Below the pieces are notes generated by a model. The model was given only the letters and a program-made list of their open reading frames with translations. It was not told the origin of the DNA and did no database searches. Of a DNA stretch of 41,280 nt, positions 381-41,280 are shown piece after piece. Location of the stretch: NCBI GenBank assembly GCA_045603865.1, contig JAZUMX010000906.1, forward strand, positions 1 through 41,280. Reading direction: 5' to 3'. The position numbers were made by a program, and so were the translations under genes. Source of the stretch: Thermoguttaceae bacterium. GTDB taxonomy: Bacteria > Planctomycetota > Planctomycetia > Pirellulales > Thermoguttaceae. Each line of letters starts with the position of its first letter. Positions within the stretch are counted from its first letter, which is position 1.

Positions 381-419
381 AAAAAAGCGTTTTGCAAGGG
401 TTTGCAAAACGCTTTTTTA
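381..419. terminator. Bidirectional rho-independent terminator between the KAS-like gene and tRNA-Phe
   Basis: Perfect stem aaaaagcgttttgcaa / ttgcaaaacgcttttt with a ggg loop. An A-run lies on one side and a T-run on the other. Confidence 0.85.
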
Positions 420-492
<73 letters not shown>

Positions 493-535
493 AACTGACA
501 ATTAAACAACAGTCGTTGTTCAAATCAATGCGTCT

Positions 536-14684: not shown

Positions 14685-14872
14685 GATCGTTCTTATAACA
14701 AATTGCAAGGTCTCGAATGGGTAAATATACTAAAACCGTCATCAACGGCGCTGTTGAGCGTCAAATATATTATACCCACTTTTCTGGACGATGTCAACAA
14801 ATTAGACGATCGAATTTTTCTTGCGAGGATATATAACCAGAAATGGTTATCTGTTTGGATAACCCCGCCTTT

Positions 14873-15328
14873 TTAAAATGATTGGTATCGGTCGTCCCAG
14901 TCATCTTGAAACGATTTTTGAGATGCCCGATTCGCATTGTCAGCAATCGTTTTTTCAGCAACAGCCATGACTTTATCGTCAAGGTGCGACTGCTGAACAA
15001 GCCCCCATATTTGTGTAACAATTACAGGCCAAAATACAAACCACATAATAGCCGTAGGGATAGCCTGAAGTTCAAACAGACCAACGCTTGCCTTAATATG
15101 AACCGAGTTATCGTTTTCTGGAGTAATTAAAACGTTAAGAGCTGTTTTCAGACCTAAAGCCGCTTTAAAAAGTCCGCCCTTTCGAATGGATACCTGAGTT
15201 CCAAAAGCACAAGAAACCTTTGAGCACTCATATCCGTCTTTCATGAAATCGTTGATAATATTCTCCGCAATGACGTCTATTAAAGCCGGATTGCAAGAAA
15301 ACGTTTTTTCACTTTGAAACACTCCCAT
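14873..15328 (-). CDS. Hypothetical small membrane protein (151 aa), last gene of the island operon
   Basis: RBS aaggagg lies 6 nt upstream of the ATG and overlaps the stop of the upstream gene. There is one strongly hydrophobic segment, AIPTAIMWFVFWPVIVTQIWGLV. I recognise no family. Confidence 0.75.
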   Translation of the reverse strand: MGVFQSEKTFSCNPALIDVIAENIINDFMKDGYECSKVSCAFGTQVSIRKGGLFKAALGLKTALNVLITPENDNSVHIKASVGLFELQAIPTAIMWFVFWPVIVTQIWGLVQQSHLDDKVMAVAEKTIADNANRASQKSFQDDWDDRYQSF

Positions 15329-15339
15329 GTTATCCTCCT

Positions 15340-15594
15340 TTACTTATTTTCAGACTGTTTAGTCCAAGCTTGCGAAATGGCAGACAAAACGCATGTTTCA
15401 ACCAACAATTTTTCAATGAACGCTTGCTGCTCTTCTGGAAGCGTTGAAGTTTTTTTGAGAAGGGAAATAACCTTTTTGGATTGTTCCATAATCTCTTCAT
15501 CTGTAACGACGCCATCCTCCATGATTTTTTTGAATGACGGGCTATTCATAACAGCTTCATCGATATTGACTATTCCTGATTCATTTAACAACAT
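15340..15594 (-). CDS. Hypothetical small helical acidic protein (84 aa)
   Basis: RBS aaggag lies 9 nt upstream of the internal ATG at 15594, which is preferred over 15642. It sits 11 nt upstream of the next gene. I recognise no family. Confidence 0.65.
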   Translation of the reverse strand: MLLNESGIVNIDEAVMNSPSFKKIMEDGVVTDEEIMEQSKKVISLLKKTSTLPEEQQAFIEKLLVETCVLSAISQAWTKQSENK

Positions 15595-15656
15595 TGTTTT
15601 GGCTCCTTTCGACCAAAGGAAAATCGTTGGGTATATTGACAATCTGAAACGGAATC

Positions 15657-16577
15657 TTATTCTATCCGCAGTTTATCCCATTGTTGAATATAAAAACTGC
15701 TGGAATGCTCAAGACTCGGGGAGCCTTGATTTATTCCAACGTGATACTCGCGAAGCCGGTCATTTTTGCCGGAATATCCTGTACTGCCTAAAGCAGAATG
15801 TCCCATGTTATACAAAGAGTACAGCATTAATGCGTGGTCGTATGGATTAAATATTGAACTAATTGGTTTCAAAACAGCTCCGCACGCCTGTTCAATATTG
15901 GGATCGTCATAGTCAATTGCCGCTCCCAAAAGAGCAGCTTGATTAATCTTGATATGTTTAGTTTTCAATTGAGCCAAGGTCTTTACAACGATATTGGCGC
16001 CAAGCGAATGGCCAATCAGGAAAAGCCCTTTTTGTTCGACGTTTGATGCTTTGGCAATCTTGTTCGCAAGCGCGTCTGCTACTTTATCGGTGTCGCGTTT
16101 TGCGTTTTCCCACCGAGTGAATAACGAGAGCGGCAACATCTTTGGCAGCTTGTCAATCCATGATTGAAGCATTGGGGATAACAAAACTGACGATTTAAAA
16201 AACTCAATGAACAAGGGCGATTTCAAAATCTTCTGCACCGAATCTGAAGACGCTGTGCGAGTTAACAAATCAGCGCTGTCAACAAATTGTTTCCATGCTT
16301 CCGATAATGAATCGTCTTGATCGTTTGAGGAGAGAATAGTCTCATCTAAAGATCGAACTCCGGAATCCCCGCTGATAATTTTACGATTGCTGGCTGGACC
16401 TTCCCATGCCAAACTGTTAATTGAACAATCAGGAAAAATCCGTTTTAACAAATTGAGTTCATTTTTTTGAGATTCGTTACCTGAACGAAATCCTGGTATA
16501 TACAGGATCTTTAAGGACTGAACTCCTGGGGGAAGGACGGGTTTCCATTCTCTGCCTGTTGAATTATTATCACTCAC
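15657..16577 (-). CDS. Alpha/beta-hydrolase, lipase/esterase-like (GxSxG nucleophile elbow)
   Basis: LYIPGF strand, then LFLIGHSLGANIV (GHSLG encoded at 15999-16013). Candidate acid and base residues follow (NPYDHAL, later His). GTG start. Low GC. Confidence 0.8.
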   Translation of the reverse strand: MSDNNSTGREWKPVLPPGVQSLKILYIPGFRSGNESQKNELNLLKRIFPDCSINSLAWEGPASNRKIISGDSGVRSLDETILSSNDQDDSLSEAWKQFVDSADLLTRTASSDSVQKILKSPLFIEFFKSSVLLSPMLQSWIDKLPKMLPLSLFTRWENAKRDTDKVADALANKIAKASNVEQKGLFLIGHSLGANIVVKTLAQLKTKHIKINQAALLGAAIDYDDPNIEQACGAVLKPISSIFNPYDHALMLYSLYNMGHSALGSTGYSGKNDRLREYHVGINQGSPSLEHSSSFYIQQWDKLRIE

Positions 16578-16619
16578 AATTGGCGCTCACGTATTAAAAC
16601 CGACAAATAATGTGTGTAC

Positions 16620-17798
16620 TTATTCTGAAACTTTTAATTTTTCGTTAATTTCTTTAAGTTTAGTGGAAGAATCTTTAACGCCTTCTTTTGCCGCTATAGC
16701 AAAACAATCTTTGGCGGCCTCCAGGTTATTACTTGAATAATAATAACAACCTGCGGCGTATGAGGCGGTTGGGTCTGTTTGAGCCAATTTCAAAACTCTT
16801 GACAAAGCTTTGCTGTCTGGCGTTATTTTGTCCTGCACGGCTTTTTCGACTAAAGCAATGAAGTATGCGTCCAATGCGCTTTTAGCGCGAACGTCTTTAT
16901 CTTCAATCGCTTCAACTCGCTTTAAAACATCCGGCGTTACAATCGCGCCTTCTTTAGCCGACTGCTCAACTTGATCGAGCGCAGTCTGGTTACAATGATG
17001 ATTGTATATTGGCGTTCCAATACCCCAACCCAAAAGGGCCAAGACAACTGCTGCAACTGAAACATACCGGATTAATCCGTTTTTTGGTTTCGGCTCGTTA
17101 GGTGGTTCCGGTTTCGGGATCGAGGATTTTGGAACGTCTGCGGTAAGCAATACTGCTAACTTATCCCAGCTGGAACTCAAAGAGAAATCGCTTTGAATTC
17201 TTTGAATGCCAAGTTTTGTTAACGAAATTGCCGCGCCTGCTGAGACTTTAGTCGTCAGCAGGTAACGACAAGATTGCAGAAAAGCGCTGCGGCTTTCTTC
17301 GTTATCGCCGCCAAACCATTTCTCGTCAGGCTCTGGCCATGCAGCTTCGTCCGCAGAAGACGGTTCAAGAAGAGCTCTTCCCAATTTGTTTGCTATGCGC
17401 TGTTGTTCAGTTTGGGATTCATGACTCCACTTTTCAGGATCGCCTTCATGAATTTGCGATGACAGCAAATCAATATAGGCGTTTTGCAGCATGACGTCAT
17501 TTTGTCCCAAAGACGGAACAATACGCTGCAAAAGTCCAAACAGCTGCGAACCCTCGTCAACGTTCCCGGTAATCATCCAGGAAAGCCGAATAACGCGGCC
17601 AACATAATCCTTTCTGCCGCTGTCCAAAGCGTTGACGTACAGCGTCCAGTTCCCGTTGCGTTGGAACAGAATCAGTTCTGGATATTCCCCCATGTGGAAA
17701 TCTTCCCATTGTTTCCATGGCTCGCTTTCCACCGGAGGAATCCAACCGATTTGCGGGTAATCCAGTTTATAGTCTTTGGTATAAAAATGGAAATCCAA
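16620..17798 (-). CDS. Hypothetical single-pass membrane protein with an unrecognised N-terminal domain of about 240 aa, a Pro/Lys linker and a helical C-terminal domain carrying a Sel1/TPR-like repeat
   Basis: TM segment LIRYVSVAAVVLALLGWGIGTPIY (about aa 242-264) preceded by PKPEPPNEPKPK. C-terminal ASYAAGCYYYSSNNLEAAKDCFAIAAKEG. TTG start with aaaggga upstream. Confidence 0.75.
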   Translation of the reverse strand: MDFHFYTKDYKLDYPQIGWIPPVESEPWKQWEDFHMGEYPELILFQRNGNWTLYVNALDSGRKDYVGRVIRLSWMITGNVDEGSQLFGLLQRIVPSLGQNDVMLQNAYIDLLSSQIHEGDPEKWSHESQTEQQRIANKLGRALLEPSSADEAAWPEPDEKWFGGDNEESRSAFLQSCRYLLTTKVSAGAAISLTKLGIQRIQSDFSLSSSWDKLAVLLTADVPKSSIPKPEPPNEPKPKNGLIRYVSVAAVVLALLGWGIGTPIYNHHCNQTALDQVEQSAKEGAIVTPDVLKRVEAIEDKDVRAKSALDAYFIALVEKAVQDKITPDSKALSRVLKLAQTDPTASYAAGCYYYSSNNLEAAKDCFAIAAKEGVKDSSTKLKEINEKLKVSE

Positions 17799-17879
17799 TT
17801 ATTATCCCTTTCATCAAAACGTTAGGATTGCGTGATGCAGCACGTTTTATGGATGTTATTTCTTGTCAACATTAGCTGA

Positions 17880-19187
17880 TTATTCTTGATCGTAGTCGGA
17901 ACTATCAACGAATTCAACAATGCAGCTCTTTTTTAACTGACGATTTCTCATCATCTCAAATCCATTTTTAAGATTGTTCACCGCGTTTGATAAAGGCTCG
18001 ACAATTGTTTTTTTCATCTCTTCCAGAGCTTTCTGTCGCTGTACCTGGGGTGACCATTCCGGTTTAGGTTTTTTAAACAGCACGTCTTTAATAAAATCAG
18101 GCCATGTTCGTCCTTCACCGCTCAGATACGCTGCAAGATCCATCTCTTTTTCGTTCGCAATCTGAGCCTGGTAATTCTTGTATTCATTGACCTGAAATCC
18201 AACGATGTCAATGAGCAATTCGTATGCGTTTTTAATCTTGAGGGCGTTGCCCATTTGAGGCCTTTTATTAAATAACGATTCCAACTCGTATGGTTTTTGC
18301 TCTTGATCGTATTTTAATACGACAGAATTCAATTCGACAATGCCATACGTGTCAACGGAAAAGACTTTACAGTTAATCAGCTCATTGATTTTTTCAATGG
18401 CTTTTTTATCAACGGTTTTTTCGTTTTCTTTCTTTTGAATTGAATAAATTTCCTTAAGCTGAGTTTCAAGCTCTTCAAGATACAGTTCGATTACCGCATT
18501 TCGCAGCTCTTTTGATTTGTCCAGAAATCCACCGTTATCATTAAAATACTTTTCGCACTTGATAGGAACAAACACCAATTGAGCGCGCATATTGTTCTCG
18601 ACTTTGTATCTAATCCACTGAACAATATTGCTGACAACGTTATCAATCTGCAGCTTCATATGAGCAAGTGAATTTTTCTCCATTTCGTTTCTTTTCCCAC
18701 GAGTCTCCTGCCAAGTCATTGCAATGTCTGCGGAAATGGGAACCAGCAGCGTAACGCTTTGATTTAAGAACGGAGTAATTTTTTCCTCAAAATCTGTTGT
18801 TCCCAACAAACCTCCGGGATAATCTTTAATGGAGAACTGCACGCTTTTACCATCGGATTCGCCATCGTCATCCCCATCCTTTTTGGTCGGAATAATCAGC
18901 GTGAAGTCATAGTCGGTTGTTGTTTCAGTAGTAGCAAGATCTGGAACGACAAACATGCCGTCTTTTGAATTGTTGGCAACATCAATGCTTGAACGGAACG
19001 TACTCTTGCATCTGTTCATTGCCTGGTTAGTTCCTTCGTCTGTTGGGAGAAACTTAAAACCGTTATTCTGAACGCGCTTGCTGACTTCGTCAAAAATGGC
19101 AAGCAAAAGGGATGTTTTACCTGATCCATTCGGACCAATCATGCCAATCTTGAATTCAATTGGTTTATTTTTTTCTTCAATACTCAT
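17880..19187 (-). CDS. P-loop NTPase, GTPase-like (Walker A GPNGSGKT, DxxG-type DYPGG)
   Basis: GPNGSGKT is encoded at 19113-19136. SVQFSIKDYPGG is encoded at 18810-18824. The C-terminal half is long and helical. The gene starts 45 nt downstream of the 788-aa gene. Confidence 0.85.
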   Translation of the reverse strand: MSIEEKNKPIEFKIGMIGPNGSGKTSLLLAIFDEVSKRVQNNGFKFLPTDEGTNQAMNRCKSTFRSSIDVANNSKDGMFVVPDLATTETTTDYDFTLIIPTKKDGDDDGESDGKSVQFSIKDYPGGLLGTTDFEEKITPFLNQSVTLLVPISADIAMTWQETRGKRNEMEKNSLAHMKLQIDNVVSNIVQWIRYKVENNMRAQLVFVPIKCEKYFNDNGGFLDKSKELRNAVIELYLEELETQLKEIYSIQKKENEKTVDKKAIEKINELINCKVFSVDTYGIVELNSVVLKYDQEQKPYELESLFNKRPQMGNALKIKNAYELLIDIVGFQVNEYKNYQAQIANEKEMDLAAYLSGEGRTWPDFIKDVLFKKPKPEWSPQVQRQKALEEMKKTIVEPLSNAVNNLKNGFEMMRNRQLKKSCIVEFVDSSDYDQE

Positions 19188-19232
19188 TTTTTTACCTTTC
19201 TAAAAACCCTTGTTTCAAGTTTGTCCAATCTG

Positions 19233-21599
19233 TTATTTGAGTTCCTCGGAGATCTTGTCTAGCAACTCGCCGATAGTGCGTTTCCAGCTGTCTTGATTGT
19301 TTTCAATCTCAGCCTTGAATTTATCATAAAATGACAGCAACTCATCGTCGGCGGCTTTATTTCGGGTGGTATTGTCAACAAAACGCTCAACAGCCGCCTG
19401 GACAATGCCTGAAATGGCAAAATGTCTTTTAAGCAATTCCTGTGATTTTGCAATCCACTCGTTAACAATGGTTCTTAAAAAACTCATACAAATGCCAGTG
19501 CGTGCAGTAATACGCTCGTTCTCGCTGTCAAAGTCTTTATAAGAACCTAAATAATGCTGCAATTGTTTTGTCAACTCCTGAACGGCGTCTTCGCCAGTTT
19601 GAAAAATTTCCTTGCGAAGTTCAGGATAAAGAATCGTATAGAATGGCGCAGAGAGTTCTTTAAGATTGGTGAACGTCTGAATCATCAAATTGCCGCGGCC
19701 TTTATCATCATACAATTCTTTAAACTTGTCAATAATGTCGTCAAGATTGCCGTCAGGAGAAAGCAATGCGCCAGTTGATTCTTGAATGCATTGATAAATA
19801 CTTTTTTGCATATCTTGAATAATGGCTTCATGATTGCTGTTCAAAGTCGAATAGTATTCACTAATTACTATTCTCATTAACTGGAGTTCCTCTGCAACCA
19901 AACTGAAAACCTGTTCATTGTTTTTGACTTTCTGACGGAACTCTTTAAATTGTTCTTCATTCTCTTGTGAGTAGCGATCGTTAAAGAACGAATGAAGTTC
20001 ATCGGTCTTTTCGTCTATGGAATTAAAGATGGTTTTCTTGTTTTCCGGATCGTTTGAAAAATCTGTGGATAAATAATGATCTGTCGAATCAGGAATCCTT
20101 TTCTTAAGGTTATCTTTCCAATGAACGGATTTTGAGGAATCTTCTGAAACGCTATATTTATTCTTGTCGGGTTTAATCGACTCACACAACTCGCTGCACT
20201 TTTGTTTAAACTCTTCTTCAAGAGTTTCCAAATCATTTTGTAACGAGCTGAACAGGTTTGCATCAAAACGAGGAAGTTTTTCTGTCATATACGAAAGTAC
20301 TGACGGCAAAAGTTCTGTTTGCATGAAATTCGGATCATATGCATCGCCGCTGAGGACAGTAAGATCATGTCCCTCCTTGGCTTTCCAGGTGTCAATAGAA
20401 TTCTTTGCGATGCCTACGGTTGCGTCATCGATTTCACCGGTATTAAGAAACATGAATGCACAATTGTCCCAGGAATTTGGACCAAAAGTATCGCTGAGAA
20501 TAATATTGACGGCTCTGTCTGAATCGGAAGGATAATTCATATTATTATCTCGAGGCCGACGAATAATCAAAGCAAGGTCAACTGAATAATTGAAACCTTC
20601 AAGAAAACATTTGCGTTCATGCTCATTACAGGTTCCAAGCCCAGGAAGATCGATGAGTCTAAGAGATTCGATTTCGTTATTGGGAAACCGATAGTAAATG
20701 GTTACTTCTTGTACTGCATAGCATAACTGTAATCCACAATAGTTTCCTTTTTCATCACGTTGATAACTAACATATTTGCAGGTTTCAGACGATGGTATTG
20801 TTATTTCTGAACCGTTAAGATAATTAATCAACTCAGGTGTGTTTTTCTGGATTTCCGACAAACAGTTCAGATGAGATTTACGGGTCTCTATGTGAACAAT
20901 ATTTCGTGGATCAATGCCCAAGTTCATCTCTGGGCTAAAATGACTTAATTCGTCATGCATACTCTGCAAATCCAGTTCAAGAAACTCATCTATGGAATAA
21001 CACTTTTTAGTTCCCTGATAAATTGAATCCATAAACGGGTTAATAAGCTTTTCCAGAAATGAATCCCGGGTATGGAATTTGACGACAGTCTTTTGTTCTT
21101 CTTCAGTTTTAACGCAGGCGATTGTACTCTTTCCTGCTGTAACGGCGGGCGATTTGCTTGTCGGAATAATAGAATTGTCGCCCTGATTTAAACCAAGAAT
21201 AGATTTTAGCGCAGTGCTTTTCCCTGAACGCGATTCTCCAGCAACGGCAATGTTGATGGTTTTACGGTTGCAACGTTCTTCCAGCTTTGTCAATTTTTCT
21301 CTGGCTCGCTCACATTTATCCTGAAGTTGGGAAACGGCGCCTGAAAACTGCGGCGAATCAACTTTTTCCAAAAGCGAGTTCAAATTGTCAATAACGCCAT
21401 CTTCTTTTTGAGCGTCCTTATCATCATCGATCGTTTTTTTTGCGCCAATAAGTAAACGCCGGAGTTCGCCAACGTCAGCTTTCAGCTTATTAGCGAGTAC
21501 GGAATAACCGTCCCACTTTTTCTGTTCCGGACCAATCTTTTCCATAATAGCAGAACGCTTCTTAATGATTTCCTGAATCTGGTCGTTAACGTTGGTCAT
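19233..21599 (-). CDS. Dynamin-like large GTPase (putative), with an N-terminal coiled coil and a long helical C-terminal region
   Basis: G1 GESRSGKST (21213-21239). Dynamin-style G3 context LRLIDLPGLG (DLPG at 20640-20651). About 470 aa of helical, charged sequence follow. RBS aaggag upstream. Confidence 0.85.
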   Translation of the reverse strand: MTNVNDQIQEIIKKRSAIMEKIGPEQKKWDGYSVLANKLKADVGELRRLLIGAKKTIDDDKDAQKEDGVIDNLNSLLEKVDSPQFSGAVSQLQDKCERAREKLTKLEERCNRKTINIAVAGESRSGKSTALKSILGLNQGDNSIIPTSKSPAVTAGKSTIACVKTEEEQKTVVKFHTRDSFLEKLINPFMDSIYQGTKKCYSIDEFLELDLQSMHDELSHFSPEMNLGIDPRNIVHIETRKSHLNCLSEIQKNTPELINYLNGSEITIPSSETCKYVSYQRDEKGNYCGLQLCYAVQEVTIYYRFPNNEIESLRLIDLPGLGTCNEHERKCFLEGFNYSVDLALIIRRPRDNNMNYPSDSDRAVNIILSDTFGPNSWDNCAFMFLNTGEIDDATVGIAKNSIDTWKAKEGHDLTVLSGDAYDPNFMQTELLPSVLSYMTEKLPRFDANLFSSLQNDLETLEEEFKQKCSELCESIKPDKNKYSVSEDSSKSVHWKDNLKKRIPDSTDHYLSTDFSNDPENKKTIFNSIDEKTDELHSFFNDRYSQENEEQFKEFRQKVKNNEQVFSLVAEELQLMRIVISEYYSTLNSNHEAIIQDMQKSIYQCIQESTGALLSPDGNLDDIIDKFKELYDDKGRGNLMIQTFTNLKELSAPFYTILYPELRKEIFQTGEDAVQELTKQLQHYLGSYKDFDSENERITARTGICMSFLRTIVNEWIAKSQELLKRHFAISGIVQAAVERFVDNTTRNKAADDELLSFYDKFKAEIENNQDSWKRTIGELLDKISEELK

Positions 21600-22248
21600 G
21601 GGAATACTCCTTAATAGTTAAAGTTGTGATTGTGGTTGGTTCCGGTTGAATACAAGTAAGAAATCCACGTTCTTCATGGATTCCGTTTCTATTAGTAATA
21701 ATAGTAATAGTGTGATAAAAATTAAACTCCAGGTTAAATCAACAAAACCGATTTTGTTTCAATGTCAAAAGTTTTAAATACCTTTGCAAAATATAATCCC
21801 CAATATCATATATGTTGCGAAGGAAAATGACAAATGAGTAAAAGCTGTTTGACGCCTGAATGTAATTTTTATAGCGTCTGTAAATATAAATACGTCGATC
21901 GTTATTAGTGTTTATATTCACAATGAAGCGTTGTTATAAACGTCAAACGATTTACCGTATTTCATTACAGCGTATGTCTTATTTATAGTGATTATACATC
22001 GCCGTTACTAAAAGTCAAGTATTTTTTATATATTTTCTAAAATTTTTCCCAAACAGATATTTATCCCCTCTGAACCTCAAAAGACTATATAATATATAAG
22101 ACTTGGGAGATCTGCTTGCTGACGTTTCGAAGACAACGCAGTCCGCACCGTATCTTCAATCTTTGCCTGTCTGTAAACTTCACGGTTTTGCCATTCTGCC
22201 CGAGTCTCATAGAAATATTATTTGAAAGCCTAAAATTCTTTTGCCCTC

Positions 22249-22276
22249 TTGTTTATTGTTTGATCTGTAGTATAAT
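22249..22276 (+). promoter_or_regulatory. Candidate sigma70-type promoter for the TSCPD operon
   Basis: TTGTTT (22249-22254), a 16-nt spacer, then TATAAT (22271-22276). It lies about 100 nt upstream of the ATG at 22375. Confidence 0.45.
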
Positions 22277-22374
22277 TCAAGATAAGTAAAAATGTTTTTC
22301 GTCCAGACGTTCCGGGAGCGGAAGCTGTGGAAGGAGTTATCGATGGACGCACTCTTTTTAAGGAGACAATAGCA

Positions 22375-25880: not shown

Positions 25881-27431
25881 ATGACAACGCGACTGACAAC
25901 GAAATGGCTCTTGCTGGCGTTTACGTTCCTGACGTTGGCGCTGCCGGTATTCGCACTGGCGGACAGCGTCAGCGATCCAGCGAACGACCGCCAGGTGGGG
26001 CTGTTCTACTTTCTCTGGCTGGGCGAACATGGACGCCGAGGACCGTTTGACGTGTCGAAGATTCTGGAAGCCCATCCGGACGCCGGAGAGAATCCGGACA
26101 ATCCGGCATGGGGACCGATTGGCGCGTTTCATCACTGGGGCGAGCCGCTTTACGGATACTATTTCTCCGATGACGAATGGGTTGTTCGTCGTCACGTGAA
26201 GCTGCTTATGCAGTGCGATATCGACTTCCTTTTCTTCGACGTAACGAATTCCGCCATCTACGAGAAGAACGCCAAGCTCGTCATGAGCGTTTTGAAGGAA
26301 TACCACGATGCGGGCTGGAATCCGCCGAAAGTGATGTTCTATACAAACGCTGGTTCTGGCAGAACTGTTGAACGGTTGTATGAGGCAATCTACAAGCCCG
26401 GCTTCGCGAAAGAGGTTTGGTTCAAGCTGGACGGGAAGCCTGTCATTGTCGCGAAGAAAGAGCAATGCTCCGATGAAATGAAGGAGTTTTTCACCATCGT
26501 AAAACCGCAGTGGCCCAACGAGGGATCCAAAAAAGGGGGCTGGCCGTGGATGGATTTCAGACGTCCGCAGCGTCTTTTTGAAGGAGAGGACGTTGCGAAA
26601 AACGTGATGAACGTTTCCGTCGCGCAGCATCCGCAGCTTCGATTTGGCGACAGCGTCCTATACGGCGAAACCGGGAACCGCGGGCGGGCGTTCCATAACG
26701 GCGCGAACGACCCGGCGCCGGACGCGTGGAAGAAGGGATACAATTTCCAGGAACAGTGGGACGCAGCGTTCGAGGCGAAGCCCGACATTGTTCTTGTAAC
26801 AGGCTGGAACGAATGGATCGCCGGTCGCTATCACGGGCAGCCCAACCGTCCTGTCATGTTCGTCGACTGCGCGAATTATGAGTATTCCCGCGACATCGAG
26901 ATGATGCGCGGCGGCTACGGCGACAATTACTTCCTCCAGCTTCGCGAAAACGTCCGGAAGTTCAAGGGAATCTCGGACAACCCTGAGCCGAATCCGCCCA
27001 ACGTCCGTAAACGATACCGTTGTTTTGCGGATTCCGCCATGCCGCGCGACCATGACGGCTACGGGACTCGTTACGTCAACCGGACTCAGCGCAACGCCCC
27101 GGAATGGATTGACGTCATGCACGATCAGCAAATCGTTACATTTATCGTCAAGACTCAAAAGCCCATTGTCGGCAAAGACGGCGAGGGAGACTTCATGCAG
27201 ATTCTCGTCAACGGCAACGCCGTCAACGGGCAGGGCGAGATGAAAATCGACGGAGACGTCATGACGCTTACCGTTCCGCGCAACGCGCTGGGGCTTGCGT
27301 CTGACTCGTTCCGCTTCGAGTTTAAGTTTGTAGATTCAACCGAGCCGTGCCGCGATCCGCTCGACTGGTACGATCACGGCGTTGTAGAGCCGCTGGGACG
27401 GGTTGCGTTTGTATATAAGGGAAGGCAATAG
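25881..27431 (+). CDS. Secreted hypothetical protein, possibly glycoside-hydrolase-like
   Basis: Signal peptide LLLAFTFLTLALPVFALA. FYFLWLGEHG...HHWGEPLYGYYFSDDEWVVRRH...IDFLFFDVTN resembles TIM-barrel glycosidase-like families. The family is not identified. Confidence 0.7.
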   Translation: MTTRLTTKWLLLAFTFLTLALPVFALADSVSDPANDRQVGLFYFLWLGEHGRRGPFDVSKILEAHPDAGENPDNPAWGPIGAFHHWGEPLYGYYFSDDEWVVRRHVKLLMQCDIDFLFFDVTNSAIYEKNAKLVMSVLKEYHDAGWNPPKVMFYTNAGSGRTVERLYEAIYKPGFAKEVWFKLDGKPVIVAKKEQCSDEMKEFFTIVKPQWPNEGSKKGGWPWMDFRRPQRLFEGEDVAKNVMNVSVAQHPQLRFGDSVLYGETGNRGRAFHNGANDPAPDAWKKGYNFQEQWDAAFEAKPDIVLVTGWNEWIAGRYHGQPNRPVMFVDCANYEYSRDIEMMRGGYGDNYFLQLRENVRKFKGISDNPEPNPPNVRKRYRCFADSAMPRDHDGYGTRYVNRTQRNAPEWIDVMHDQQIVTFIVKTQKPIVGKDGEGDFMQILVNGNAVNGQGEMKIDGDVMTLTVPRNALGLASDSFRFEFKFVDSTEPCRDPLDWYDHGVVEPLGRVAFVYKGRQ

Positions 27432-27436
27432 AAATA

Positions 27437-27498
27437 GTTCGCCTAACGGCGAATGCGTAATTCCGCTCCCGCTGGTCGCTTCATTACCGCCTTCCATT
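27437..27498. repeat. Single 62-nt REP-like unit filling a convergent gene gap
   Basis: Its reverse complement matches 13454-13515 at roughly 85-90% by eye. It overlaps the acpS stop codon by 2 nt. Confidence 0.85.
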
Positions 27499-27907
27499 AT
27501 TCAATTATCTCACTGTAGACTTCGTCGCCCTGTATGATTATTGCTGTTGCGGTCGCGTATTCTTTGCAGTGTGACATAGTAATGAGAAAATCGCAGAGGT
27601 TTTGTTCTCGGGCGATTTCCAGAACGCGTCCGCCGATAAAAACAACAGGTCTTCCGGACAGCAGATTGCGAATTTCCAGATCGCGCCATTTGATTCCGTC
27701 AGCATAGCCGGTTCCCAGCGCTTTGAGAATTGCCTCTTTAGCGCTCCATCGGGCGGCAAAGTTTTCGTTTGAATTTTTATGTCCTTCGCAGTAACGGATT
27801 TCCAGCTCTGTAAACGTCAGATTTTTAAAAGAATCGCCATGGCGGGCAAGCATATCCGCAACGCGAGAGATTTCCGTTATATCAGTACCGATTCCGTAAA
27901 CGTTCAT
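27497..27907 (-). CDS. acpS: Holo-[acyl-carrier-protein] synthase
   Basis: GIGTDITEISRV, ARWSAKEAILKALGTG. Size 136 aa. Confidence 0.9.
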   Translation of the reverse strand: MNVYGIGTDITEISRVADMLARHGDSFKNLTFTELEIRYCEGHKNSNENFAARWSAKEAILKALGTGYADGIKWRDLEIRNLLSGRPVVFIGGRVLEIAREQNLCDFLITMSHCKEYATATAIIIQGDEVYSEIIE

Positions 27908-35590: not shown

Positions 35591-35631
35591 CAGTCCTGTC
35601 GTAACTCCATCGGATAATGCGTACAGGACTG
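35591..35631 (+). terminator. Candidate stem-loop terminator after the 725-aa gene
   Basis: cagtcctgt ... acaggactg: a 9-bp stem and a 23-nt loop. The U-tract is weak (attaaaatcaatttt). Confidence 0.3.
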
Positions 35632-35877
35632 ATTAAAATCAATTTTAGGTTTATCCCAGAGGTTGGCGCCTGTAAATTAAAAAGCGAACGATTAACCTGT
35701 CAAATCCGTAAACGGTTTGACCCGCGCAAGGGCTAATCGCCAACATGTCGGAAGCGCCAGGCGGGAGCGCTGTTTTAGGAGCAAGGTTAAAGCGCAGGCA
35801 AAAAGTCCCCGCGTTAAGCGGTAGCGCTTATCGGTCAGAACGCCTTGCGTCTAACCTTGCCCCTTTTGACAGCTTAA

Positions 35878-36384
35878 CTATAAGCTGTCATAATTACTGG
35901 TTGGTTCTTCCTCCGGCGTGACCTGTTCAATCGTGCCTAACACGCTTCTCAAGCAACGCTCCACGGGACTCCAATCAATTTTGTTCCACAATTCGTAAGC
36001 CTTTTCCTTTAAATAAAGATTGGTATTCGTCCAGTTCTGGTTTAAATCTCTGCAACTCTTGTTGACGTCATCCAGGTTGACGTGATACGTGTCCAACCAG
36101 AACAACTTACGAGCGTTCCACTCTTCAAACTGGACGTTCAATTCGTTGTCCAATTCCGATGAAGAACCGTCGCCGGAAGGCATGCAAGGCGCTTCCGTCC
36201 ATTCAATTAACATCGATAATGCGATGCCGCCAACAATATTGACTACGACCGTGATAATTGTCAGATTACACACGAATCGAAGCAGTTTTCCGAACCAGCC
36301 GTTTCCAAACCAGCTGAAATTCCAGAAATCAAATAGTCTGAATGGAGCCAACAAATCGGTCCAATCATTCTTGCGATCACCCAT
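35878..36384 (-). CDS. Hypothetical membrane protein (168 aa)
   Basis: RBS aaggagg lies 5 nt upstream of the ATG at 36384, which is preferred over 36507. Trp-rich N-terminus and one TM segment, LTIITVVVNIVGGIALSMLI. Confidence 0.65.
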   Translation of the reverse strand: MGDRKNDWTDLLAPFRLFDFWNFSWFGNGWFGKLLRFVCNLTIITVVVNIVGGIALSMLIEWTEAPCMPSGDGSSSELDNELNVQFEEWNARKLFWLDTYHVNLDDVNKSCRDLNQNWTNTNLYLKEKAYELWNKIDWSPVERCLRSVLGTIEQVTPEEEPTSNYDSL

Positions 36385-37101
36385 GTCAACCTCCTTACAC
36401 CATAAAAGGTTAAAAATGATTCCATTGAAACGCACACGTGATAATCCAATTTCATCACAGTCGGTTTCAAAAAAATGCGCTAAACGCGTTTCTCGATCGC
36501 AGGTCATCGAATGCCTGCGAATTCAAAACGCATGCCAAATCCAAAATCGTGAAGTCCGCAAAGCTTACCCGGGCGATGCCATGCGTCTTTCGATAGGCGT
36601 CTTTCGATGAACGCTTCTTGATTCCTCTTTCAACAACGAACCGTTAACTGGTCAGCTAACGCTTGCCGTCAGAATCAAATTTGGGAAAGGCGATTATTGC
36701 TAATAATTAATAAACGTTAACAAAAATTATTGGTAACAGACCAATGAAACATTTTTTGTCGATTTCTGGAAAAAGTTTTTTTTCCTTTTTCAACACGTAT
36801 ATACGAAATCAAACATAAAACTGTCATTGAAAAACAGTCGTTTTTAGAAATTTCCATAAATATTTATATTGCATAGCTTTATAGCATATAAAATTTACAA
36901 TAAGCCTATGAAATTTTAACACGTGTTTCAAATAATAACCTTTCTATCCCGCGGCAAGGAAATCTTTTCAATTAGCGATTAGTAAATAGAGTCGTTAAAA
37001 TAATGAAGAACGAATCTCTCTTCGCAAGTCTGTTTCAGGTCAAATCAGCCGTTGAGCTGTAATTAATATTGGATTTTTTGAATATTTCGTGAAACTCTTA
37101 C

Positions 37102-37129
37102 TTGCAAATGCAAACGATAGCGCTATAAT
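37102..37129 (+). promoter_or_regulatory. Candidate sigma70-type promoter upstream of the ychF-like gene
   Basis: TTGCAA (37102-37107), a 16-nt spacer, then TATAAT (37124-37129). Confidence 0.4.
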
Positions 37130-37169
37130 TTATATCGTTAAAATAAATCATTTAATAACCGCATTAAAA

Positions 37170-37295
37170 GTGGTAAGTTTTAAGCGCTAAGTTGTAAGGA
37201 GGAAAGTCGCTCTTCCTAGTTTTATCGCTTAAAATGACGACTGCTCTCCAGAGCGTATGTTCTTCCTTACCACTAACCACTAACCACTCGCAACT
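37170..37295. repeat. Inverted heptamer arrays (GNNNTAA x5 / TAACCAC x3 + TCGCAAC) ending 1 nt before the start codon at 37296
   Basis: gtggtaa gttttaa gcgctaa gttgtaa ggaggaa (37170-37204), a 55-nt spacer, then ttcttcc ttaccac taaccac taaccac tcgcaac (37260-37294). Confidence 0.8.
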
Positions 37296-38327
37296 ATGAA
37301 AATAGGATTAGCAGGGTATTCCGGCTCTGGAAAGAGTACGTTGTTTCATTGGTTGACCGGCTTCGCGCCGGACTTGGCTCTGTCGCATAAAGAGCAGAGC
37401 GCCATGGTTCCCATTCCCGACGAGCGATTCGCTCCGCTGTGCGAACTGTACAAGCCGAAAAAGGTAACGCACGCCAATCTGGAACTGGTCGACACGCCCG
37501 GCTTGAACCGAAACCACGAAGGCGCGCCCGCGATTTTGGCGCACATTCGCGAGGCGGACTGCCTCGTACTGGTCGTCGGCGCGTTTGACAAGTCCGACCC
37601 GGTTCAGGACTACAATTCCTTTACAGAAGACCTGCTCGTGGCGGACATGGAAGTCGTTTCCAACCGTTTGGAGCGTTTGGAAGCCCAGCTCAAACGACCG
37701 CTGCAAAAGCCGGAAAAGGAAAAGCTCCAGTTCGAACAGACGGTTTTGCAGAAGGTTCTCGCCGGCTTGGAAAACGAAAAGGCGGTTACGCTTGACGACA
37801 TGACCGAAGACGAGCAGAAATGCACTCGCGCCTTCCGTCTGTTCAGCGAAAAGCCGAGAATGGTCGTCGTCAACTGCGGCGACGACGAGTCCGATCTTCA
37901 CCGGTTCGACAACTGCATTGAAGGCGTCAAGGTTTTTGCTGCGCCGGTTTCCCTTCAGCTGGAACTGGACTCTATGGAGCCGGAAGAAAGCCAGGCGCTC
38001 ATCGAGGAGATGGGGCTTCAGACGGCGAACAAAGACGAGCTGGTTCGGCTCATGTTAGACGAGTCCGGACAGATGACGTTCTTCACTGCCGGGGAGCCGG
38101 AAGTGCGAACCTGGATTCTCAAAAAGGGCGGAACAGCCCTCGACGCCGCTGCCAGCATTCACACCGACCTGGCGCGCGGGTTTATTCGAGCGGAAGTCAT
38201 GACCGTAACCGACCTCCTGGCGGCGGGCAGCGAACGCGAAGTCAAAGCCAGAAACCAGCTCCGTCAGGAACCCAAAGGATACGTCGTCAAAGACGGCGAC
38301 ATCCTGCTGATTCGGTTTAGCGTGTAA
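37296..38327 (+). CDS. ychF: YchF/OLA1-like P-loop GTPase/ATPase (divergent)
   Basis: G1 GYSGSGKST and G3 LVDTPGL. The C-terminal block FFTAGEPEVRTWILKKGGTALDAAASIHTDLARGFIRAEV...VKDGDILLIRFSV is typical of the YchF TGS-like domain. Confidence 0.8.
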   Translation: MKIGLAGYSGSGKSTLFHWLTGFAPDLALSHKEQSAMVPIPDERFAPLCELYKPKKVTHANLELVDTPGLNRNHEGAPAILAHIREADCLVLVVGAFDKSDPVQDYNSFTEDLLVADMEVVSNRLERLEAQLKRPLQKPEKEKLQFEQTVLQKVLAGLENEKAVTLDDMTEDEQKCTRAFRLFSEKPRMVVVNCGDDESDLHRFDNCIEGVKVFAAPVSLQLELDSMEPEESQALIEEMGLQTANKDELVRLMLDESGQMTFFTAGEPEVRTWILKKGGTALDAAASIHTDLARGFIRAEVMTVTDLLAAGSEREVKARNQLRQEPKGYVVKDGDILLIRFSV

Positions 38328-40423: not shown

Positions 40424-41083
40424 TCACCCTTCTGGCGGAAAATTTACCAGCTCTTTCCATTGCTCAGTCGCGCTGGAAAGAGGCCAGTCCTGCGGCGTTT
40501 GAACGGTTGTTTGACCCCATCTCAAACCGACAGGATTGTTTAAAATGTACTGTCGAGTATTGGCTTTATGATTTGACCCGCGAATCATTCGATCAAAGTA
40601 GTTGGGATACCAAACGGAATCGACAAAATCAGGATTATTGGCAACCGCTTGTTTATACGACGCTGTTTCCATGATACGACGGCTGGTAAAGCTTTTCCAT
40701 GACTCGACAACGTCTTTTAATGCGTACCCGTAATATTGGTTAATTAATAAATGAACGTGATTAGGCATTATTACCCATTCTAAGATGTCGTATGCCTTTT
40801 TATGATGATAAAACCAATTTTCCAATATAATCGGGAAAACGTCGTCTGCGGTTAAAATCCCACAGCCGCTTCCGTTATGAACCCATTCTTCAACTAAATG
40901 CCCCATATAGGAGCGTCGGCGTTCTTTTGGAACGATTGCAGCCTTTTCTAATAATTCTTTTAACTGATATTTAGGTAAACTGTCCCAAAGACGGTATGTT
41001 ATATATTGCAGTCTTTCAGGATAGTCCCAGTGTGGTAAATTGTGGTGTTTATACGTGCGTTTATGTTGATTCTCTTTTCGCAT
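40424..41083 (-). CDS. IS200/IS605-type Y1 (HUH) transposase, REP-associated tyrosine transposase (RAYT)-like
   Basis: NLPHWDY...YITYRLWDSLP, HUH motif MPNHVHLL, and C-terminal VWYPNYFDRMIR with a candidate catalytic Tyr. The ATG at 41083 is preferred because the codons upstream of it lie inside the flanking repeat. Confidence 0.85.
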   Translation of the reverse strand: MRKENQHKRTYKHHNLPHWDYPERLQYITYRLWDSLPKYQLKELLEKAAIVPKERRRSYMGHLVEEWVHNGSGCGILTADDVFPIILENWFYHHKKAYDILEWVIMPNHVHLLINQYYGYALKDVVESWKSFTSRRIMETASYKQAVANNPDFVDSVWYPNYFDRMIRGSNHKANTRQYILNNPVGLRWGQTTVQTPQDWPLSSATEQWKELVNFPPEG

Positions 41084-41097
41084 AATAATTATTTCAC

Positions 41098-41280
41098 GCC
41101 GCGAAGTGTGCATACAAAACTGACGTAAGCCGGAAACCTCCTCCGGATGTAGCCCGGCTTCGGGCTACACTGCTAATACTACGAAAAACCAATTTCGTAG
41201 CCGAAAATATTCGTCATTTTCTCTCTACGTTGTCTCCCCCTTTCGGCGTTTTTTTCCCTTGACGGCTTTCGCCGTCAAGT
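41098..41280. repeat. REP-type repeat block (copy B), a direct repeat of 40198-40365; it runs off the window
   Basis: It has the same order of elements as copy A (gcgaagtgtgcat, ccggaaacctcctccgg, gtagcccggcttcgggctac, cttgacggctttcgccgtcaag), with a divergent middle. Confidence 0.85.

Follow-up and report, generated by a model that had tools for sequence, protein, structure and literature searches.

A Thermoguttaceae operon linking a dynamin-like protein to a YcjX-like GTPase: a candidate membrane-acting conflict system

The six-gene operon and its proteins

A contig of a Thermoguttaceae bacterium (GenBank assembly GCA_045603865.1, contig JAZUMX010000906.1), of which we analysed positions 1 to 41,280 (hereafter the window), carries six genes on its minus strand between 14873 and 21599, here lettered A to F in the order in which they would be read. 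We find that they form a genuine, clearly bounded gene system not described before, a variant of GTPase-centred membrane and conflict systems, in which genes for a predicted dynamin-like protein (A) and a predicted YcjX-like GTPase (B) are followed by genes for a putative membrane adaptor (C), a putative serine hydrolase (D) and two small proteins (E and F). An initial annotation, made from the letters of the sequence, had described six co-directional genes and proposed a conflict or defence role for them; the coordinates bear out its gene sizes and gaps exactly, and the motif positions it had named (K127 in A, K24 and DYPGG in B, S191 in D) are all correct. The features of the locus, with lengths in amino acids (aa), are as follows.

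19233..21599, minus strand: gene A, 788 aa, predicted dynamin-like protein
17880..19187, minus strand: gene B, 435 aa, predicted TRAFAC-type GTPase of the YcjX/DO-GTPase kind
16620..17798, minus strand: gene C, 392 aa, TTG start, predicted tail-anchored membrane protein
15657..16577, minus strand: gene D, 306 aa, GTG start, predicted alpha/beta serine hydrolase
15340..15594, minus strand: gene E, 84 aa, acidic helical protein
14873..15328, minus strand: gene F, 151 aa, one hydrophobic helix, member of the F/Z family
22018-21991, minus strand: promoter-like site TTGACT-16-TATAAT from a consensus scan, 11 of 12 matches, a sequence match only
14845..14864, minus strand: terminator-like hairpin directly 3' of the F stop codon from a pattern scan, with a weak T-run and only suggestive
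14709..22326, no strand: low-GC accessory stretch that holds the operon, between a GH130 gene and a TSCPD gene

From A to F the genes are separated by 45, 81, 42, 62 and 11 nucleotides (nt), and a pattern scan of the coding strand found no terminator-like hairpin between them. Shine-Dalgarno-like sequences stand 5' of A, B, C, E and F and a weak one 5' of D, in keeping with the earlier statement that most of the genes have clear ribosome-binding sites. The promoter-like site lies about 390 nt 5' of A, within an AT-rich non-coding stretch of about 700 bp (21600-22326) whose single open reading frame (ORF) is a doubtful one of 60 aa (21739-21921); if the site is real, the operon would have a leader of about 390 nt. 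The long leader has no match to any Rfam family, and on that ground we ruled out a structured RNA there. The GC content (fraction of guanine and cytosine) of the operon is 0.407, compared with 0.53 in both flanks, and by segment 0.38-0.45 compared with 0.50-0.57, so the placement in a low-GC accessory stretch that had been noted at the outset stands.

Protein A begins with helices, continues with a G domain and ends in a long helical bundle, and it carries the motifs GESRSGKST (P-loop K127), T154 and DLPGLG at 317-322. The GKS of G1 (K127), T154 and DLPG are invariant throughout the A family, which comprises about 20 homologues among 5.8e9 proteins. The AlphaFold2 (AF2) model of A has a predicted local distance difference test score (pLDDT) of 84, and its top Foldseek matches in the PDB are all members of the dynamin superfamily, with BDLP 2j69 first (3.5e-10), then IniA, SynDLP and Cj-DLP1/2, and after these Fzo1/MFN. 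Against Pfam Dynamin_N the protein scores 21.7 bits, under the gathering score of 27, which is passed by distant relatives of A (P0022, 32 bits; a Nostoc plasmid protein, 40.4 bits). Since the window copy misses this threshold, it is by fold and transitive homology that we place it in the superfamily, and the model strongly supports reading A as a dynamin-like protein of the class of bacterial dynamin-like proteins (BDLPs) and mitofusins, one that carries no membrane anchor itself. The aromatic loop at residues 652-659, PFYxxxYP, is invariant and is a candidate membrane contact site only. Residues 384-388 (20435-20449) read FLNTG in the window and FQND(G/A/K) in 17 of 17 aligned homologues; as FLNTG is the sole G4-like candidate in A, the base specificity or activity of the window copy may differ. 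Membership in the NCBIfam 'slr1306 family' was considered and rejected, as A scores 21.7 bits where the cut-off is 490. When the PDB was searched by sequence, with A, B and D singly and with profiles of A and B, only P-loop or coiled-coil noise came back.

Both A and B had been called GTPases, and AF2 models and Foldseek agree on the two folds. They had further been likened to the paired dynamins of LeoABC and Eleos, and here the initial annotation needs correcting, as B appears to be a TRAFAC GTPase of the YcjX/DO-GTPase kind. Its conserved motifs are the P-loop GKT (K24), an invariant T53, DYPGG at 122-126, FVPIKCEKYFNDNGG and VDTYG, and the part C-terminal to the GTPase motifs forms a helical hairpin. 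The best Foldseek match of the B model (pLDDT 86; predicted template modelling score, pTM, 0.87) is YcjX (6nz4/5/6), over the full length and at a TM-score of only about 0.36-0.38; Ras, Rag and EF-Tu GTPases come next, and there is no dynamin among the 50 structural matches listed. A profile of B homologues aligns by hhalign with E. coli YcjX at 83.6% probability (E 8e-6), in an alignment confined to 104 N-terminal columns that starts at the P-loop and reaches 'DYPGEWL' in YcjX and 'DYPGGLL' in B. Against Pfam DO-GTPase2, B scores 20.9 bits (threshold 27) across residues 14-65 only, the P-loop stretch; the same family is weakly matched by 10 of 22 B homologues (E <= 0.01; best 1.1e-6), and Pfam DUF463, the YcjX family, by one of the 22 (E 7e-4). 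The Walker-B glutamate position is Gly in the window B (DYPGG) and G, N, R, Q, H or E in homologues. Taken with the model, these matches strongly support B as a switch GTPase resembling YcjX and DO-GTPases, and not as a second dynamin. Copies of B number one, two or five in tandem per locus, with paralogues 29-66% identical to one another.

Protein C was correctly described as a membrane protein and has one hydrophobic segment. Judged by its sequence, it is a tail-anchored protein of a new family: a conserved N-terminal domain of about 200 aa (motifs DYPxIGW, YPE.IL, SGRxD and GDPxxW) is followed by a Pro/Lys-rich linker, a transmembrane (TM) segment at 241-265 and a helical tail of about 125 aa, which is seen in the hydrolase subtype described below. 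The tail may be Sel1/TPR-like, a reading we take from its sequence, as it has no Pfam match. Lys and Arg residues ahead of the TM helix would place the N-terminal domain in the cytoplasm, and hence we predict an N-in, C-out topology. No match to C was found in Pfam, PADLOC, NCBIfam or PHROG, and since none of these family libraries gave one, we ruled out GAP1 or another known domain. A profile search of 1.84e9 proteins with the N-terminal domain gave 43 cluster representatives, all from its own family and with no informative fusions. Among the related loci that we compared with the window, labelled L001 to L024 (W being the window copy), a C homologue follows B in L001, L003-L008, L010-L012, L017, L020, L021 and L024. 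In the public annotation C (P0045, 357 aa) starts at an internal Met36; the 392-aa form with a TTG start is probably the correct one, since homologues align from its residue 1. In L017 the operon C is split into ORFs of 280 aa and 137 aa; L017 and L018 are from the same sample. A solitary paralogue, 63-65% identical to the window C with the tail included, stands alone between the ACPS and GH99 genes in L018 (9001-10263) and L019 (7974-9167); in the window these two genes are only 70 bp apart (27431-27501).

Protein D, first described as a GHSLG hydrolase, does carry that GxSxG motif and passes the Pfam thresholds of DUF726 (25.5 bits, gathering score 22.6) and DUF900 (22.9 bits, 20.5). A candidate triad of Ser191 (GHSLG), Asp247 (NPYD) and His291 (LEHSS) is kept in all five aligned homologues, and the sequence strongly supports a cytoplasmic alpha/beta serine hydrolase with conserved catalytic residues. 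D homologues adjoin the core in L001, L017, L020, L024 (two copies) and L003. Protein E is helical and, as claimed, acidic (pI 4.6). It is specific to its subtype, being found besides the window in L001 and L017 alone (74-75% identity), and has no family match in Pfam, PADLOC, NCBIfam or PHROG. A TerB-like identity, prompted by 'DGVVTDEE' and by the TerB genes of sister loci, was rejected at an hhalign probability below 1%. Protein F has an N-terminal globular part and then a single hydrophobic helix at 87-111, the one TM segment that had been predicted for it, and no credible match in Pfam, PADLOC or NCBIfam. It does align by hhalign (98% probability, E 1.9e-13) with the Z proteins, one-TM proteins of about 137 aa that are encoded 5' of A in the sister subtype, and the combined F/Z family has hmmsearch matches in W, L001, L004, L008, L010, L011, L013 and L015 and a BLAST match in L017. 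Through this homology F belongs to the conserved core, and its earlier casting as a regulator or immunity factor gives way to that of a core protein. It is strongly supported that C and F are small membrane proteins and that A and B always or usually occur with them.

Related loci, subtypes and mobility

Homologues of A to D do co-localise in other genomes, as the initial annotation had anticipated. The order A, then B, then C holds in every contig long enough to judge, including a Streptomyces plasmid, and the full order A-B-C-D-E-F recurs in L001 and L017; with the core kept in all sufficiently long loci and the full order in these two, the six-gene arrangement is not due to chance. Two subtypes differ in the enzyme that accompanies the core. 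In the hydrolase subtype (window, L001, L017, L020, L024 and L003) a D-type gene stands after C, or before A in L003. In the M48 subtype (L004, L006, L008, L010 and L011) the gene for an M48 peptidase, its HECGH motif intact, comes after F/Z-A-B-C, and genes for DUF445, TerB, DUF697-like or YbjN proteins are often added; the DUF697 matches, in L004 and L008, are weak (E about 2e-3). In L006 the same tightly spaced gene string is extended by patatin, RyR and two TIR genes. DUF445 alone follows C in L005, and the L007 contig showed no enzyme gene up to its end. In L010 (6379-8032, Kiritimatiellae) there are two tandem M48 paralogues, and the second, which lacks HExxH, may be inactive or regulatory. 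The enzyme of the system was initially taken to be the hydrolase; this is so in the window, but at least two alternative modules exist, and elsewhere an M48 peptidase stands in for the hydrolase.

The system is rare: A is present in two of 185,579 species genomes, from two phyla (a Thermoguttaceae metagenome-assembled genome, MAG, and a Kiritimatiellae MAG). A linear plasmid of Streptomyces aurantiacus carries the A-B-C triad, with profile E values of 1.9e-64, 5.5e-49 and 3.8e-14. On this plasmid (L021:7064-11784; NZ_CP114282.1, 360 kb) A, B and C are 734, 381 and 290 aa long and are followed by an unrelated protein of 139 aa, all four annotated as hypothetical, and an IS5 transposase and a large AAA ATPase are encoded nearby. 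Plasmid pNsp_h of Nostoc sp. ATCC 53789 (L023:4131-9643) encodes a distant relative of A, a dynamin family member of 881 aa (profile E 1.4e-40), divergent from a genuine DO-GTPase1/DO-GTPase2 pair and with a vWA gene nearby. The place of this A relative beside the DO-GTPase1/2 pair suggests that the association of dynamins with DO-GTPases is recurrent.

Close relatives of the window allow the genomic position of the system to be compared. The housekeeping genes of the window are 87-91% nucleotide-identical to those of L001, L017, L018, L019 and L020, the last of which is a Thermoguttaceae MAG. The system sits immediately upstream of an AIRS-domain gene in L001, L017, L020 and L024, and at least three forms occur at this site: A-B-C-D-E-F (for example L001:8271-14809), A-B5-C-D (L020:5867-17913) and ..B-B'-C-D-D' (L024:65-6303). 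The AIRS protein itself is 96-99% identical among genomes whose variants at the site differ, and the site looks like a variable hot spot. In the window the AIRS-domain gene is at 678-1790, with a tRNA-Phe gene upstream (419-493, minus strand), and the system is 13 kb away, between the GH130 and TSCPD genes. Homology with L001 begins only at position 614, by the AIRS-domain gene, and so the start of the window corresponds to the position of the system in relatives; as the window ends here (1-677), the AIRS site cannot be confirmed as empty.

The system also differs in composition and in rate of change from the genes around it. Its GC content is 7-12 points under that of the flanks in five loci. 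Between the window and L001 the flanking proteins are 77-98% identical, and within the system identity is 47% for A, 55% for B and 57% for D against 73% for C, 75% for E and 79% for F. We consider one horizontally mobile operon of foreign origin to be the best explanation of the six genes.

Comparison with known systems

None of the PADLOC, Pfam or NCBIfam models identifies the system; the initial annotation likewise knew of no described system in which a GTPase pair is joined to a lipase-like enzyme and such accessory proteins. A literature search on dynamin with DUF463, and on dynamin-like proteins with anti-phage defence or with planctomycetes, did not find the combination described. The system is closest to Eleos/LeoABC, IniA/C, DynA and the DO-GTPase-GAP1 systems, yet it departs from each of these in the features that define it.

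With bacterial dynamin-like proteins (BDLP, IniA/IniC, Campylobacter DLP1/DLP2, SynDLP and DynA) A has its overall fold in common, and many of them are, like A, encoded beside a second GTPase and membrane-associated partners. The differences begin with sequence, where similarity is at noise level, with Dynamin_N under threshold and no PDB relative by sequence or profile; no paddle or TM segment was found in A, and its G4 motif is unrecognisable. Its partner GTPase, B, is by our reading not a dynamin, and the predicted membrane anchor is a separate new protein, C. DynA is reported to guard the membrane during phage infection (PMC8844932). Eleos, a two-dynamin operon, gives protection from jumbo phages for which both P-loops are needed (bioRxiv 10.1101/2022.05.11.491447), and the window operon resembles it in combining a dynamin-like GTPase with a second GTPase. 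However, Eleos/LeoABC requires two consecutive dynamin-like proteins, LeoA and LeoBC, and the window has the YcjX-like B instead. The PADLOC LeoBC model scores 17.1 bits on A (E 6e-4) across residues 64-146 only, and LeoA 11.2 bits (E 0.035). Nor does Eleos have equivalents of C, D, E or F.

A second group of comparisons starts from B. DO-GTPase-GAP1 conflict systems were proposed from comparative genomics by Kaur et al. 2020 (PMC7159879), and the DO-GTPase family is defined there by a conserved Walker-B glutamate (DYPGE); dynamin is nowhere mentioned in the main text of that paper. Likenesses to these systems are the apparent distant relationship of B to DO-GTPase2 and YcjX, the possibility of several B paralogues, membrane-associated components, and a constant core with variable enzymes. 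Set against them, no GAP1 is found in C or in the other proteins of the operon (Pfam, E <= 1), and the window B is under the Pfam threshold and without the Walker-B glutamate. YcjX is a stress protein whose gene adjoins ycjF, encoding a DUF697 inner-membrane protein; a survey of phage shock protein (PSP) systems predicts that YcjX acts in membrane-related stress and, citing the YcjX structure paper, puts a GTPase of the YcjX kind in the DO-GTPase family (PMC11237479). The YcjX-YcjF pair of E. coli and Shewanella resembles the present system in that the P-loop and a DYPG(E/G)(W/L)L motif are common to B and YcjX, that ycjX adjoins a membrane-protein gene, and that weakly matching proteins of the DUF697 (YcjF) family occur in two sister loci; the window, however, has no YcjF (DUF697) homologue. 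We know of no YcjX that pairs with a dynamin-like protein, and found no paper containing both 'dynamin' and 'DUF463'. Finally, D resembles the DUF726/DUF900 hydrolases in passing both Pfam thresholds and in having a GxSxG nucleophile elbow, but its scores are marginal and it has an insertion of about 100 aa ahead of the nucleophile.

Proposed function and alternatives

What might such an operon do? By analogy with known conflict systems, we consider the chances evenly balanced that it is an undescribed membrane-acting conflict or defence system with a constant core and a variable enzyme. The functional reading in the initial annotation is plausible, though only part of it is supported. The operon would be a GTPase machine anchored at the inner face of the cytoplasmic membrane. 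As A has no anchor of its own, we propose that C and F hold it there: C, its N-terminal domain cytoplasmic and its tail outside, would together with F recruit A and B to the membrane. An envelope disturbance, most likely caused by phage or another invader, might be sensed via B, via the outer tail of C, or via both. GTP-dependent assembly of A could then remodel or seal the membrane, and the enzyme module (D here, an M48 peptidase in sister loci) would be switched on and cut membrane lipid or protein, with the outcome that the membrane is protected or the infected cell dies.

We favour a conflict or defence role on account of the swappable-enzyme layout, the B arrays, the turnover at the hot spot, the foreign GC content and the occasional defence neighbours. 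A constant core with a swappable enzyme is a layout typical of immune systems. The folds of A and B, the rarity and patchy occurrence of the system and the uneven divergence of its proteins also count in favour of this role, as do the precedents of Eleos, DynA and the DO-GTPase conflict systems. The defence-like neighbours are HmaC/DUF499 in L003 and patatin with TIR in L006; PDC-M13 matches among the 62 neighbours scanned, not assigned to a locus, may be a third such case. A more specific version of this reading is tentative, and we hold it with clearly less than even confidence: a new membrane-acting immune class in which A and one to five diversifying YcjX-like GTPases, on a C/F adaptor, would detect envelope perturbation by phages or plasmids and answer with GTP-powered remodelling and a swappable enzyme (serine hydrolase, M48, or patatin/TIR).

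Several observations weigh against a conflict or defence role. The window flanks are housekeeping genes by Pfam and form no defence island, and most related loci have no recognisable defence neighbours, in a sample too small for statistics. No integrase, tRNA or flanking direct repeats were found at the operon borders, where a search for integration signatures turned up nothing beyond short, imperfect repeats (for example an inverted pair of 24 nt with 75% complementarity). No phage or viral copy was found: tblastn against 50,697 phage records gave no match, and IMG/VR yielded no relatives; with no informative PHROG matches either, a phage or prophage origin was rejected. PADLOC has no model that matches the six proteins beyond P-loop noise (LeoBC, E 6e-4; AriA and PtuA, 2e-5), and none that matches the M48, DUF445, TerB and DUF697-like accessory genes of the sister loci. 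Those genes and YbjN, the accessory set of the sister subtype, resemble envelope-stress proteins and not toxins. The proteins themselves add further points. A has no canonical G4 (N/T)KxD motif, the family having FQND and the window copy FLNT, and a Kyte-Doolittle scan of A and its homologues detected no hydrophobic or TM segment and no membrane-binding paddle. That D is a lipase is an assumption, as neither DUF726 nor DUF900 has a defined substrate.

The alternative that survives best is that the operon is an accessory module for envelope stress or membrane maintenance with no immune role, which we think somewhat unlikely but a serious contender. A would repair or remodel the membrane, as has been proposed for IniA and DynA, B would act in the manner of YcjX, C and F would serve as anchors, and D or M48 would clear damaged lipid or protein. 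Such a module would fit the stress protein YcjX being the closest structure to B, the DUF697-like, DUF445, TerB, YbjN and HtpX-type M48 genes of the sister loci, the failure of those accessory genes to match PADLOC, and the mostly housekeeping flanks. For a function of this kind, however, the extreme rarity, the low GC and the differing sites and variants in near-identical genomes would be unusual, as would the speed at which A and B diverge and the B paralogues arrayed in tandem, and the L006 gene string runs on into patatin and TIR genes.

A part in vesicle release or secretion, as first proposed for LeoABC, would turn the system toward competition or host interaction and away from defence. 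We regard this as improbable. A does belong to the fold class of LeoA and other BDLPs, C would have an extracytoplasmic Sel1/TPR-like tail, the hydrolase could loosen membrane lipid, and an autotransporter gene is the upstream neighbour in L001 and L017. But that autotransporter belongs to the local chromosome and is absent from other loci, no secreted cargo gene is conserved beside the core, and the LeoA and LeoBC models match the P-loop region only.

Two further explanations are very improbable. One is lineage-specific housekeeping in the inner-membrane organisation of planctomycetes or of the wider Planctomycetes-Verrucomicrobia-Chlamydiae (PVC) bacteria, to which the window and most of its relatives belong (Thermoguttaceae, Kiritimatiellae), and a preprint does speculate that planctomycete dynamin-superfamily proteins shape internal membranes (10.1101/2023.06.28.546890); it is hard to reconcile with carriage by so few species genomes, position and content that vary among close relatives, a copy on a Streptomyces plasmid and foreign GC. 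The other splits the locus into two unrelated adjoining units, an A-B-C GTPase unit and a D-E-F hydrolase cassette of the toxin/antitoxin type, as the absence of D-E-F from the M48 subtype and the small, acidic E directly beside D might suggest, but the Z protein found with A-B-C in the other subtype is a homologue of F, D homologues lie beside the core in other loci (in either of two positions, and whether or not E and F are present), and the genes are only 11-81 nt apart with no coding-strand terminator-like hairpin between them.

Although bacterial dynamin-like proteins and YcjX-type GTPases are widespread, both are poorly understood in function. The operon physically couples the two and adds C, a putative membrane adaptor of a new family. 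If the immune reading is true, it would be the first functional link between a bacterial dynamin and a YcjX/DO-GTPase, and would give YcjX-type GTPases a concrete role. A defence function would also extend the dynamin branch of bacterial immunity past Eleos, and would make the operon a tractable model for how a dynamin without an anchor is recruited and controlled. If the function turns out to be membrane repair instead, YcjX-like GTPases would still gain a partner and a testable role. The differing variants at the AIRS-gene hot spot in near-identical genomes are in themselves a natural experiment in system turnover.

Elsewhere in the window there are a few features that stand apart from the operon. 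A second low-GC patch at 35600-37300 (0.389 over 36001-37000) holds an ORF of 209 aa on the minus strand (35878-36507) that has no Pfam match. Near the window end lies an IS200-like Y1 transposase gene (40424-41113, minus strand). Between 6266 and 10487, three tandem genes with DUF1559 and N-terminal-methylation domains, an arrangement typical of planctomycetes, are followed by a gene for a Sel1 protein with four repeats.

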